Under the pieces are notes generated by a model. That model made no database searches and was not told the DNA's origin. It worked only from the letters and a program-made list of their open reading frames with translations. Position numbers and translations under genes: made by a program. From an uncultured Verrucomicrobiales bacterium (GTDB lineage: Bacteria; Verrucomicrobiota; Verrucomicrobiia; Verrucomicrobiales; DEV007), in contig CALKOM010000001.1 in assembly GCA_938091905.1 (NCBI GenBank), forward strand, positions 32,001 through 96,000: a stretch of 64,000 bases of DNA, read 5' to 3'. This document shows, in pieces, positions 56,022 to 60,245 of this stretch. Within the stretch, counting starts at the first letter, position 1. The number at the start of each line of letters is the position of its first letter.

Positions 56022-59000
56022 CTAACGCAGAAACGGTTTGCCTTGCTGATAGAGCGATAGGCGGCCTTTCAGCTCCTTTATCAACCTGTCATTACGCTGT
56101 TTCCGTGCCATGGCGAGCGCACGCTGCGTGAGCTGACTGGCCTTCTCAAACTGCTGGTTACTGGCCAGAGCAGTGGCAGCCGTATCGATGGCATGGGGAT
56201 TGTTTGAGAATCGTTGGAGGATCTTCTGAGCCAAGGACAGAGCACGTCTGGGATTGCGGAAAGCCGGGTTGCGACTGGTCGAGAGTACCCAGCAAAGCTG
56301 ATTGAGTGTTTGGAAATCATCGGGCTTCACTTTGAGTGCGAATTCGTAGATCGCGGCTGCTTGATCATCTTGTCCAAGACTCTGGTAGGTGTTCCCCAAC
56401 TGTACTAAGACATCGTGTTGTTTTGGAGCCCGCTTGAGGAAAGTCTGGAGAATGGTTGCTGCTTCCTTTCCGCGTCGGAGTGCGGTAAGCGTGCGGGCAT
56501 GGGCGAGCGTCGCTTTGGAGTGTTGGGGATTCAGCTTCGTTGCCCGTTGGTAGAATGGAAGAGCGATCTTGGGCAAGGCATTCTCCAAGCGATAGGTTTC
56601 TCCTAACATATACTGAATATCGGCCTCTTGATAACGCCGTTTCGCAGCTTCCCCCTCGTCAACCTTGGCGAGCGCCTCTTCGAGATAGCGTCGAGCATGT
56701 TCGTTGTAGCCGCCCTCGAGGTAAACTCGAGAAATGGCCACCGGATGGGTGATAAAGTGATCATTTGACCAGCGACCTGGGAATGGAATGGCATGGTCAG
56801 GATGTTTGGAGACGGGTTGTTGTAGGCGCTGGGTCTGTGCTAGGATCGAGTCTGCCGAGACGGCTCCTTTGGTGAAGCTTACAAGACTTCCACGATGCCA
56901 AAGGAAGCTACTAGGCAGAGGGAGGGCTTCCTGTTTGTAGAGAGTGTTGCGCTGGGCTTGATCGAGAGCCTCGACCATTTCTTGACTGGCACGGCCGGAA
57001 GCGAAGGGCCAATTGAGCTTCCTTAGACGTTGCTCCAGTGCCTTGGGACTTGGGGCTTCCGTACCTTCGATTTTTGACTGAGCCTCTTCGATGTTCAGGG
57101 CGACGACTTGAATACCCGCGTTCTGAATGGCCTTATGTTGCGTTGATAGGAGTTCCATTTCCTTAAGGCAAGGCTGGCACCAGGATGCCCACAGAAGGGT
57201 GAGGGTGAGTGGTTGGGTGTCAATGGTGGCGGTGCTACCTGACCAGGTGCGGTAGCGAAGCGTCGGTGCAGAACGGGGCTCCGATAGATAGGTCTCCATC
57301 GTTGGAGGTGGACTCGGTAGCGTCAACGGTGTTGCTTTCAATGCAATGGCAGCTTGTTTCGCGGCGGTCGCTTTGCCTGTCCCCTGACGAAGGTGCCATC
57401 GGCCGGAGGGTTTCGCTTCGAAAGTCTCGCCTGCCGTCTGACCTGGCCATGTCACCTGAATCTTTGTTGTTGTGGCTTTGCTACCGAGCCCGAAGTGAAG
57501 CCACTTGCTGGACTGGCTTAGGAAGCCATCGCCTGCGGTGACCTGGCGCGTGAGCTTGGTCCTATCCGAAAGAGTTATGGTGGCGATGGCACCGATAGCA
57601 TCGCGTGGCGTCCCTTTGCTGGGATCACCTTCGAGGCGAAGGGCAAGTGTTTTAGCTTTTGTTAGGTAGTCGTTTCGGAGCAGACGCACTCGAGGTCCGG
57701 TGCGATTGCTCACCCAGAGATCCAGATCGCCATCTCGATCCCAGTCGGTGATGGCAAGGGCGCGGCCGTCGTCTGGCAAACCAAAGCCAGACATCAGGGA
57801 GACGTCGGCGAAGCGCTTCCCACGAGTATTGAGAAAGACACTATTTGGTTCGCGACCTGAGAAGGAATTGCCGTTTCGGATGCGCGTGGCGAGATCTTGC
57901 CAGGCATCGAGGTAGCCTTGGCCCGGAGTGGTAGTTTCTTTGCTAGGACTTTGCGACACGACCTGCCGCCAGTAGAAGCCTCACAAATCACCGGTGTCTT
58001 CCTGAGTGATGAAGCCATTGGCCACAATCAAATCTTGCCAACCGTCATTGTTGAAGTCGGCAAAGGCAGATCCCCAGGCCCAGCGTCCTTGGGTGACAGC
58101 AGCGGACACGCTGACATCCTCGAAGCCCTTGCCAGGTCCGAGATTGTGGAAGAGGGAGTTTCCTCTGGCGTGCCGGACAAATAGATCGCGGGTGGTGGTG
58201 TCTTCGTTTGCGAGGAAACGGGCCTGCTTGGCGATTCGATTACCTGCGGAGGAGAACATGTTGCTAACATAGATGTCAAAAAATCCATCGTTGTCGTAAT
58301 CACCCCAGGCGGCGGACATTCCGGCAGCGATGTCGAGCGTACCGCTACTCTCGGCCACGTCAGTGAATCGAATTTGGTCTCGGACCTTGTCTTGGCGGTA
58401 GAGATTGTTGCGACCGAAATCATTGGCGACATAGAGATCGAGATCGCCGTCCCGATCATAGTCTGCCCACGCTGCTGCATAGCTGTAACGCGTGTTGTTC
58501 GCATCGAGCCCCACTCGTTGGGTCACGTGGCGAAAGCGGAACTCGCCGTCATTTCGCAACAGCGAATTACGGCCGCCATTGGTGGCATCTTGATACGGCA
58601 CGGGACGAGCTAGGGCCACGTTTCTATCCACGTGCCCACGACGATCGTAGCAGGCTGCAAAGATGTCTAGATCGCCGTCCTGATCGTAGTCTGCGGCAGC
58701 GAGTGAGTAGGGGACCGCAAAGGGGAGTACCTCGGCAGAGCGCACGGTGAATCGTCCCGAGCCATCGTTCTCTTGGATAACGAGGCCTTCGGCTACGGAA
58801 ACGACAAGGTCCTGATCGCCGTCGTTGTCGAGATCAATGAAGAGGGCACCTCGGCTAGTTTCTAACCAATCTACTCCGGCCGCAGTAGCGACATCGCCTG
58901 CCGTGCCATCGGCGCGTGCAAGGAACAAACGGTTGGGCAAGCCGCCACTCTGACACACGTAGAGATCCTCCATACCATCACCATTGGCATCGCCAACGGC

Positions 59001-59768
59001 CAAGCCGTTCCATCCCCCCACTTTGAGGCCGACGCGCGTATCGAGTCGAGCCAGCCAATGATCCAGACCGTGAGCGAGTTGGTTTTGAAATGCAGGATCG
59101 CGACCGACCACTGTGGCTGTCGCTTCTGTGAAGAGAGCGCCTCGCGTTGATGTGGTGATGACCTCTTCGTAGTCATCGACAATGAAACGTTCCAAGGCGA
59201 GTGACGTTCCCGTCCGTTTCCAGCTGCATGACCAAGTGCTATTGACTTGTAAGTCCTTGCCATCGGAGGTTTCACCATCTAACCGAATTTCTAAGCGGGT
59301 TTCCACCCGTGTTGCGGAAGTTTCCACGCCGACCGTCTTAAACTTTACATTGAGTGGGCCTGTACTTAGTCCCTTGGTTAGACTCAGAACTGCTTGGGTC
59401 CAGCCACTGGGCCCATGAAGCTTGTCCGATGCGTCGCGACCGGCGCGGTGGACTTGCAGGACATCGTCGATGTATGCCTGGTCGCGCTTCGTCGGACGTA
59501 GCGGGGCGCCGCGAAAGTTGTGAGCAGCAATTCCTTCTAATCCGGCTGCTTGAGTGCCAGAGGCGAGCGTTTCTTTGAGGGCTTCAAGGCGCGAGCTGGT
59601 GACTTCGGCAGCTTGTTCGCTATCCCAGCCGCCATGACTAGGATCGTACCTTGGGGTGGCAATACCAGTACCCGGCACTGCAGGGGGGCTTGTTTGTGCA
59701 ACGGCGCTAGGTCCTCCTAGGAGGATCGCGATGAAAGACAGGAGGGGAACGCGCCACATGGTGAACAT
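56022..59768 (-). CDS. Secreted FG-GAP/CRTAC1-like beta-propeller - ASPIC/UnbV - TlpA-like thioredoxin - TPR protein with in-frame TGA at codon 596 (candidate selenoprotein; otherwise two ORFs, 57981-59768 and 56022-57959)
   Basis: Both ORFs share one frame (...EDTGDL*GFYWRQVVSQSP...); DxDxDGDxD repeats on both sides of the TGA; GFLSQSS..LHFGLG; WCQPC; TPR helices; SECIS-like hairpin after the TGA. Confidence 0.75.
57945..57983 (-). promoter_or_regulatory. Putative bacterial SECIS element
   Basis: mRNA reads UGA-GGCUUCUACUG-[GCGGCA GGUCG UGUCGC]-AAAGUCCU: 11-nt spacer, 17-nt stem-loop with a G-initiated loop, and a possible lower stem. Confidence 0.65.
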
Positions 59769-59810: not shown

Positions 59811-60203
59811 TTACCGGCCCTCGTCCTGAGCTTTCTCAATGGCGCTCATCAATTCCTCATACTCGTCCCGATCCAGCTTCATCTTCTTGTCTGCCAAATG
59901 GGCAGCCAAGGCGCGTGAGAAAGACCCATCGAAGAACGTCTTCACGACATGATTGAGCATCTTGGCACCAGTCTTGGCACGAGCAGGCCGAGGCATGTAG
60001 AGGTAGTTCCTGCCCTCTTTGCGACGCTTCACAAGCCCTTTATCCTCTTCAAGGATTTGCAGCATTCGCCGGATTGCCATGGGCGTTGGAGCCTTCGGCA
60101 GTTTTGATTGAATTTCGAGCACAGAGGCCTCACCTACTTCATAGAGGATATCGAGGATCTGACGTTGTCGCCGAGAGAGATGCTTCTGGAAGTCAGTATT
60201 CAT
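59811..60203 (-). CDS. BlaI/MecI/CopY family transcriptional repressor
   Basis: LSRRQRQILDILY, winged HTH, VVKTFFDGS motif; start taken at ATG 60203. Confidence 0.9.
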   Translation of the reverse strand: MNTDFQKHLSRRQRQILDILYEVGEASVLEIQSKLPKAPTPMAIRRMLQILEEDKGLVKRRKEGRNYLYMPRPARAKTGAKMLNHVVKTFFDGSFSRALAAHLADKKMKLDRDEYEELMSAIEKAQDEGR

Positions 60204-60229
60204 GGCAGCCGAGGAGTTTGAAGGATCCA

Positions 60230-60245
60230 CGCTATGAAAGTAGCG
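60230..60245. promoter_or_regulatory. Candidate BlaI-type operator palindrome
   Basis: CGCTA-TGAAAG-TAGCG, 26 nt upstream of the repressor ATG; matching half-site CGCTACTTT at 60283-60291. Confidence 0.45.

Follow-up and report, generated by a model that had tools for sequence, protein, structure and literature searches.

A minus-strand gene in a 64,000-nucleotide stretch of DNA from an uncultured Verrucomicrobiales bacterium (contig CALKOM010000001.1, positions 32,001 to 96,000; the window, in whose numbering all coordinates of the gene are given) very probably encodes selenocysteine (Sec) at an in-frame TGA, codon 596, with decoding by SelB and tRNA-Sec directed by a hairpin 12 to 28 nucleotides (nt) downstream. 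The explanation that we favor, with a probability of roughly 0.6, is that the gene makes one exported selenoprotein whose Sec takes part in a redox relay with a thioredoxin domain of the same chain.

A long frame interrupted by a single TGA

Translation of the minus strand from 59768 to 56022 with TGA read as U gives 1248 residues and one recoded codon, U596, in the context DTGDL-U-GFYWRQVV; under genetic code table 11 the same frame is split into open reading frames (ORFs) of 595 and 645 amino acids (aa). Of the DxDxDG blade motifs of a predicted FG-GAP propeller, six lie ahead of the TGA and the seventh (D675, DWDRDGDLDLWVSN) beyond it, together with the ASPIC/UnbV domain. The 645-aa ORF shows no hydrophobic N-terminal stretch in its hydrophobicity profile, and its GTG (57959-57957) straddles the loop and the 3' arm of the hairpin. 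A preliminary description of this stretch, made from the letters alone, had remarked on the lone interrupting stop, the last blade and ASPIC/UnbV domain beyond it, the signal-less downstream half with its GTG inside a hairpin, the thioredoxin CQPC (57179-57168), and the splitting to be expected from standard gene calling, and each of these observations holds. Its proposal of a one-chain product also agrees with the homologs. A database search returned 120 hits, 87 of them with the site motif, and 86 of these 87 proteins span both halves in one chain; the search covered called proteins only, so that only sense forms were detectable.

The TGA (57983-57981) is covered by contigs of three DNA runs from three other studies (X7, X9, and X13), none of them flagged as a possible origin of this DNA, with no difference listed at the codon, indicating that it is not a read error, an outcome for which the preliminary description had allowed. 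Differences between strains (10 synonymous and 11 non-synonymous) are uninformative. Four short contigs from an RNA run (X15) do not bridge the TGA and are not evidence of transcription, and a plasmid collection gives no match at an E value of 1e-20.

A SECIS-type hairpin accompanies the UGA

Counted from the UGA, a 6-bp stem joins bases +12 to +17 to bases +23 to +28, and the 41-nt segment folds with -9.7 kcal/mol. The model of the bacterial Sec insertion sequence (SECIS), as set out in a section of PMC13188914, calls for a loop of 3 to 9 nt with G in its two initial positions, a spacing of 16 to 37 nt, a stem of 4 to 16 bp, and a folding energy of -7.5 kcal/mol or lower; the hairpin fits all four constraints given there. 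Folded alone, it is no more stable than shuffled versions (z of -0.69 to +0.88), and Rfam returns no SECIS match, its sole match being a chance snoRNA at an E value of 4. The significance of the hairpin rests on its conservation and not on its stability.

That conservation is extensive. All six pairs form in 66 of the 72 TGA sites from genomes, and sliding the partner arm by 1 to 3 bases across these sites lowers the pairing from 0.95 to 0.20-0.69. Five pair types occur at +15:+25, where the third base of an Arg codon, which varies synonymously, changes in step with the residue-changing first base of a Ser, Ala, Pro, or Thr codon four places on. As a control, we collected metagenome loci with the motif DL-x-SF[FY]WRQVV and any codon at x (at least 120 loci; with one duplicate dropped, 119 sites). 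Among the matches listed, 37 sites have TGA and 82 a sense codon, with no case of TAA, TAG, Trp, or Cys. All of the stem can form at 35 of the 37 TGA sites but at 1 of the 82 sense sites; since the protein motif is fixed, the constraint acts on the RNA and accompanies the UGA. Further, when the window's own genome was scanned for TGAs with open frames extending far on both sides, 13 of the 1726 such codons showed exactly this hairpin geometry, and 9 of the 13 belong to this family; the tenth TGA paralog of that genome has a 4-nt loop.

Codon usage around the site is also uneven. Where Leu precedes the TGA, its codon is TTG in 45 of 58 genome cases, and among the metagenome matches listed TTG is found in 29 of 37 TGA sites versus 19 of 82 sense sites. 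Gln at codon +10 is CAA in 41 of 52 cases. UUGUGA could pair with UCGCAA, overlapping the 3' arm of the SECIS hairpin, in a possible alternative fold.

The TGA is shared across a family found with Sec genes

In the window's own genome, selA, selB, and selD each score above the curated cut-off, and there is a tRNA-Sec whose anticodon is TCA, which completes the set of genes on which the preliminary description had made its proposal depend. As a positive control for Sec decoding, the genome has a gene of the fdhA type whose single in-frame TGA lies in SRA-U-HAP. TGA is an ordinary stop in this genome, where it ends 296 of the 1103 long open frames having a stop.

Ten paralogs in the own genome, this gene included, carry TGA at the aligned column, and the eight others that are near full length are 33 to 41% identical to the query. 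Among 41 genomes (the own genome and 40 relatives), 17 have the family, with 137 matches, 133 of which contain an internal TGA and 4 no stop. The family occurs in 16 of the 21 genomes with a selA match versus 1 of the 20 without, and this lone genome (G016) has selB and tRNA-Sec; because the 41 genomes are related, these counts overstate independence. In Acidobacteriota, where two unpublished genomes were left out of the sample, 14 of 119 genomes have the family; 13 matches, spread over 11 genomes, carry TGA, and 3 are sense forms. Of these 11 TGA genomes, ten have selA (background, 94 of 119), the eleventh (G121) has selB and tRNA-Sec, and a genome with a sense form (G139) has no selA, selB, or tRNA-Sec match over the cut-off. 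The family is found in 22 of the 151 Planctomycetota genomes, as 30 TGA and 5 sense matches; selA is present in all 22 of these versus 110 of the 151 overall. The column was confirmed for matches whose locus was fetched, and 72 of these 79 aligned sites have TGA. The codon is thus not private to one genome, a case that the preliminary description had named as a refutation, and, apart from a metagenome-assembled genome (MAG) considered below, UGA forms are confined to Sec-using genomes. Taken together, the sel genes, the family-wide TGA, and the hairpin support the earlier proposal that Sec is inserted at the UGA of a single exported chain, and this is almost certainly a selenoprotein gene.

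Several further loci stand beside these. Distant paralogs in the own genome (C179, C36, and C167; 750 to 850 aa) end after the ASPIC domain, do not have the CxxC of the thioredoxin domain, and have Cys (two) or Asp (one) at the Sec column. One paralog of a relative (L044, G008:C14) has no TGA codon, being 3 nt shorter with the hairpin bases retained, by either real loss or assembly error; we do not count it as a loss because that assembly has other broken copies. A Blastocatellia MAG (L066) has two more divergent FG-GAP genes less than 3 kb apart; both contain an in-frame TGA placed between DL and LP, possibly marking a subfamily with a different hairpin register. A scan of contigs was dominated by generic FG-GAP proteins, with 4 of the 80 loci kept having TGA sites.

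The own genome has other likely selenoprotein genes with a hairpin after the TGA, at C29:33068 (+), C28:6111 (+), C117:63101 (+), and C167:19582 (-). Judging by their motifs, three of them are presumably peroxiredoxin-like (TGGU), SelW-like (CSQU), and thioredoxin-like (WUAGC); the other is fdhA. In both L052 (11905-14244) and the own genome (C162), selD lies within a long open frame, and the selD of G033 is fused to a pyridine nucleotide-disulfide oxidoreductase domain.

The probable Sec site lies on a predicted CRTAC1-like propeller and co-occurs with a distant CxxC

A model of residues 45 to 830, with Cys in place of Sec, has a mean predicted local distance difference test score (pLDDT) of 94.1. 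Its best structural match is murine CRTAC1 (9etn; Z of 40.6, root mean square deviation [rmsd] of 2.3, 456 residues aligned), and the next entry has a Z of 28. The preliminary description had put Sec in a plain propeller loop; the model instead places U596 at the start of a helix (595-606) within a two-helix insertion between blades 6 and 7. D450, R511, N537, W563, W600, R601, D667, and R669, among others, are nearly invariant in Sec and non-Sec forms alike, which suggests a conserved, putative binding site.

In the 87 proteins with the site motif, the Sec column holds Asn (24), Asp (19), Glu (13), Ser (9), Cys (8), Ala (7), Arg (3), and Gly, His, Gln, or a gap (1 each). The Cys or Ser codons that had been predicted for Sec-free homologs are therefore the minority, and Asn, Asp, or Glu mostly stands there instead. 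As the sense homologs seldom have Cys, searches built on Sec/Cys pairs may have missed the family for this reason.

No positions in the chain follow Sec more clearly than the cysteine pair of the thioredoxin motif. With Sec forms more than 75% identical to the query left out, C864 and C867 are conserved in 97% and 99% of Sec forms versus 15% and 35% of forms with neither Sec nor Cys at the column. Counted per sequence, after rows without the propeller core or the thioredoxin region were dropped, 63 of the 65 forms with Sec have CxxC, as do 1 of the 7 with Cys and 8 of the remaining 70 (9 of 77 without Sec). When the Sec and SECIS codons are left out of the tree, about 10 changes of Sec state are seen on it.

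A possible redox relay and the evidence that weighs on it

We propose that recoding of UGA596 yields one exported protein of about 1248 residues, in which Sec would stand where a helical insertion begins on the seven-bladed, CRTAC1-like propeller of the calcium-binding type. We infer export from the N-terminal signal. The selenol would be the reactive center of an extracytoplasmic redox enzyme, reacting with a substrate held at the propeller and becoming oxidized; the CxxC of the thioredoxin domain in the same protein would then reduce it again, drawing electrons from a DsbD/CcdA-type membrane carrier. Electron supply to TlpA/ResA proteins by such carriers is established, and the own genome encodes a DsbD/CcdA-type domain. 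Oxidized sulfur in envelope proteins, or peroxides, may be the substrate. Lineages that lose Sec would tend to lose CxxC also, keeping a non-redox version. We consider this relay somewhat more probable than its absence. The co-occurrence of Sec and CxxC speaks for the possible self-contained redox enzyme suggested in the preliminary description, whose enzymatic activity stays conjectural.

Several results weigh against the relay or against the recoding that it presupposes. Cys is scarce at the Sec column, in 8 of 87 one-chain proteins and in 0 of 82 metagenome sense sites among the matches listed, and 6 of the 7 scored Cys forms have no CxxC. Replacement of Sec by other residues counts against its being essential to all functions of the family. 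Forms with neither Sec nor CxxC are common (82 of 119 metagenome sites among the matches listed) and keep the same invariant propeller residues, so that the family has a role needing no Sec. Apart from the Sec column, the propeller of Sec forms has no position with an invariant Cys, the best reaching 55%. An independent-pairs test of Sec against CxxC is not significant: on well-supported branches only 5 pairs exist, of which 3.6 change the same way, about 0 the opposite way, and 1.4 show no difference (median P of 0.125), a consistent trend that falls short of significance. Finally, one TGA-bearing MAG (G041) has no selA match, a selB match below the cut-off, and a marginal tRNA-Sec score. A complex prediction of the propeller-ASPIC part with the thioredoxin domain, made on a natural Cys homolog (P0009), scored 0.28 against a mark of 0.32, and we use it neither way.

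Alternative explanations

The most serious alternative, which we regard as unlikely but well worth keeping in view, is that Sec is inserted without being catalytic, either as a ligand of a soft metal or metalloid or because the UGA and SECIS form a selenium-dependent gate on full-length synthesis. A chain stopping at 595 would have no blade 7 and should not fold, which makes a gate conceivable. That the site, at the start of a helix, freely takes Asn, Asp, Glu, Ser, Ala, or Gly instead fits a non-catalytic role, and the position of family members beside Sec genes in two genomes fits this or a gate: the selD-selB-selA-selC cluster of G033 has a member on either side, and a member in G065 has its end 415 nt upstream of selA, which lies on the same strand. 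A pure gate, however, leaves unexplained why a distant CxxC persists in forms with Sec but decays in those that have none and why the codon is kept in each of ten diverged paralogs.

Far less probable is a true stop at the TGA, with a restart at the GTG and assembly of the two chains. This would explain the two long ORFs given by table 11 and the GTG or ATG found at codon +8 in 61 of 72 sites, but the start codon is missing there in the other 11, and the stop is never TAA or TAG. The codons between the TGA and the GTG keep their amino acids through synonymous changes and contain no stops (Trp in 72 of 72), the hydrophobicity profiles place a signal peptide on the first half and none on the second, and the family tracks Sec genes.

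Slightly more improbable still is read-through of the UGA as another residue, such as Trp by leaky decoding, or a genome-wide reassignment of TGA. A UGA followed by A is a leaky context in E. coli, and A follows the TGA in 66 of 72 sites. Trp is nevertheless absent from the column in the 87 proteins and in the 82 sense sites among the matches listed, and the hairpin fits the bacterial SECIS model; reassignment is contradicted by the ordinary use of TGA as a stop described above and by selA, selB, and selD, which have no internal TGA.

A nonsense mutation or sequencing error has a negligible probability, being ruled out by the same codon in contigs of three other studies, in ten paralogs, and in three bacterial lineages, and we found nothing in its favor.

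Other features of the gene and its neighborhood

Table 1. Predicted features of the gene, with their window coordinates
Feature	Positions	Strand	Basis
Single gene, 1248 codons with TGA as Sec	56022..59768	-	Recoded translation; homologs spanning both halves in one chain
Probable signal peptide, about residues 1-24	59697..59768	-	Basic residue then hydrophobic stretch, Kyte-Doolittle peak 2.8; cleavage site placed from hydrophobicity alone
NTF2/SnoaL-like domain, residues 40-215	59124..59651	-	Model pLDDT 91.9; structural match LinA
FG-GAP beta-propeller, blades 1-6, six DxDxDG motifs	57984..59141	-	Pfam, model, motif count
Two-helix insertion between blades 6 and 7, residues 595-631, opening with the Sec site	57876..57986	-	Model secondary structure
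In-frame TGA, codon 596, probable Sec	57981..57983	-	Translation, family alignment, contigs of other studies
Putative SECIS hairpin, stem 57969-57964 with 57958-57953, loop GGUCG 57963-57959	57953..57969	-	Folding, conservation; loop starts at +18 after the UGA
Seventh propeller blade, about residues 643-699	57672..57842	-	Model, DxDxDG motif
ASPIC/UnbV domain (UnbV_ASPIC, PF07593), residues 724-778	57435..57599	-	Pfam, E value 4.8e-15
TlpA/ResA-like thioredoxin domain, WCQPC (CxxC 57179-57168), conserved Pro952	56901..57197	-	Pfam, NCBIfam, structure matches
Tetratricopeptide repeats (TPRs), about residues 1043-1223	56100..56642	-	Pfam/profile matches

Folded alone, the N-terminal domain best matches LinA (3a76; Z of 13.4, rmsd of 2.8, 139 residues aligned), followed by many NTF2-like chains; this predicted likeness is one of fold only and has no functional implication. 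The thioredoxin domain has an AhpC-TSA match in Pfam at residues 858 to 956. A gene for a BlaI/MecI-type repressor (PF03965) lies at 59811-60230 on the same strand and ends 42 nt before the start of the 1248-codon gene. Such a gene is also upstream in all four same-genus relatives whose loci were fetched and is not in that upstream stretch in the one fetched relative of another genus. It may regulate the propeller gene or may be a mere neighbor.

Implications

Bacterial selenoproteins would gain a new fold and an exported location from this family, which reaches 15 matches per genome and which a table 11 reading splits in two. If the assignment is true, the ten copies may form the largest part of the selenoproteome of the own genome, and bacterial ASPIC/UnbV proteins would have their first catalytic role. 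U596 together with C864/C867 offers a testable handle on the function of bacterial CRTAC1/ASPIC-UnbV proteins. The working rule of conserved Cys homologs, on which published search methods are based, is challenged as well. More broadly, we give even odds to the family being a large, much-duplicated group of exported selenoenzymes on a CRTAC1-like propeller, with a helix-borne Sec that the chain's own thioredoxin domain recycles and that is exchanged mainly for Asn, Asp, or Glu instead of Cys, and hence a class that searches for Sec/Cys pairs largely miss.

Comparison with known systems

The family is absent from the catalogs that we checked. Table 1 of PMC13188914, which gives all 119 families of a 2026 inventory, has no FG-GAP, ASPIC/UnbV, or CRTAC1 entry, in line with the earlier suggestion that the architecture lies outside characterized selenoprotein families. 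Term searches found no FG-GAP, ASPIC, or CRTAC1 entry in the main text and one supplement of PMC13326102 (BSepDB) and no sign of the family in the main text and four supplements of PMC12013277 (deep-Sep), in the main text of PMC13745706, or in the passages available of PMC4807772. The portion available of PMC12758564 describes a CRTAC1-family gene beside hydrazine synthase homologs and does not mention selenium there. A literature search gave no bacterial report of the family, although its coverage is incomplete and an earlier listing is possible. NCBIfam has no model over the cut-off for this protein or three relatives. According to a passage of PMC13188914, nearly all selenoproteins have Cys homologs; compared with catalogued selenoproteins, this family has Cys only as a minority substitute.

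As in murine CRTAC1 (9etn), a seven-bladed propeller with DxDxDG motifs is followed by an ASPIC/UnbV domain, here in one chain only with read-through. Unlike CRTAC1, with which it shares 21% identity in the structural alignment, the protein has an NTF2-like domain at its N terminus and carries the Sec site as well as a thioredoxin domain and TPRs. The WCxxC motif and thioredoxin-like domain recall the TlpA/ResA extracytoplasmic thiol-disulfide reductases, whose models and structures it matches, but the NCBIfam scores lie far under the cut-offs (33 versus 230 bits for TlpA and 31 versus 170 for ResA), pointing to a TlpA-like domain and not a family member, and thioredoxin is here one domain of a large protein. 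In contrast to known UxxC selenoproteins, Sec lies outside the thioredoxin motif, about 270 residues away and on another fold. Neisseria PilB (Trx-MsrA-MsrB) is an enzyme fused to its own thioredoxin. The recycling proposed here, of an active-site chalcogen by a thioredoxin domain of the same chain, would resemble such fusions by analogy only, and the catalytic part has no known likeness to theirs in sequence or fold. The gene shares its conserved UGA, sel genes, and SECIS geometry with the bacterial selenoprotein genes decoded through SelB and SECIS, of which the formate dehydrogenases of E. coli are the archetype. The recoding system is of a known kind, and what is new is the fold that carries the site, the small share of homologs with Cys, and the thioredoxin domain linked to Sec.

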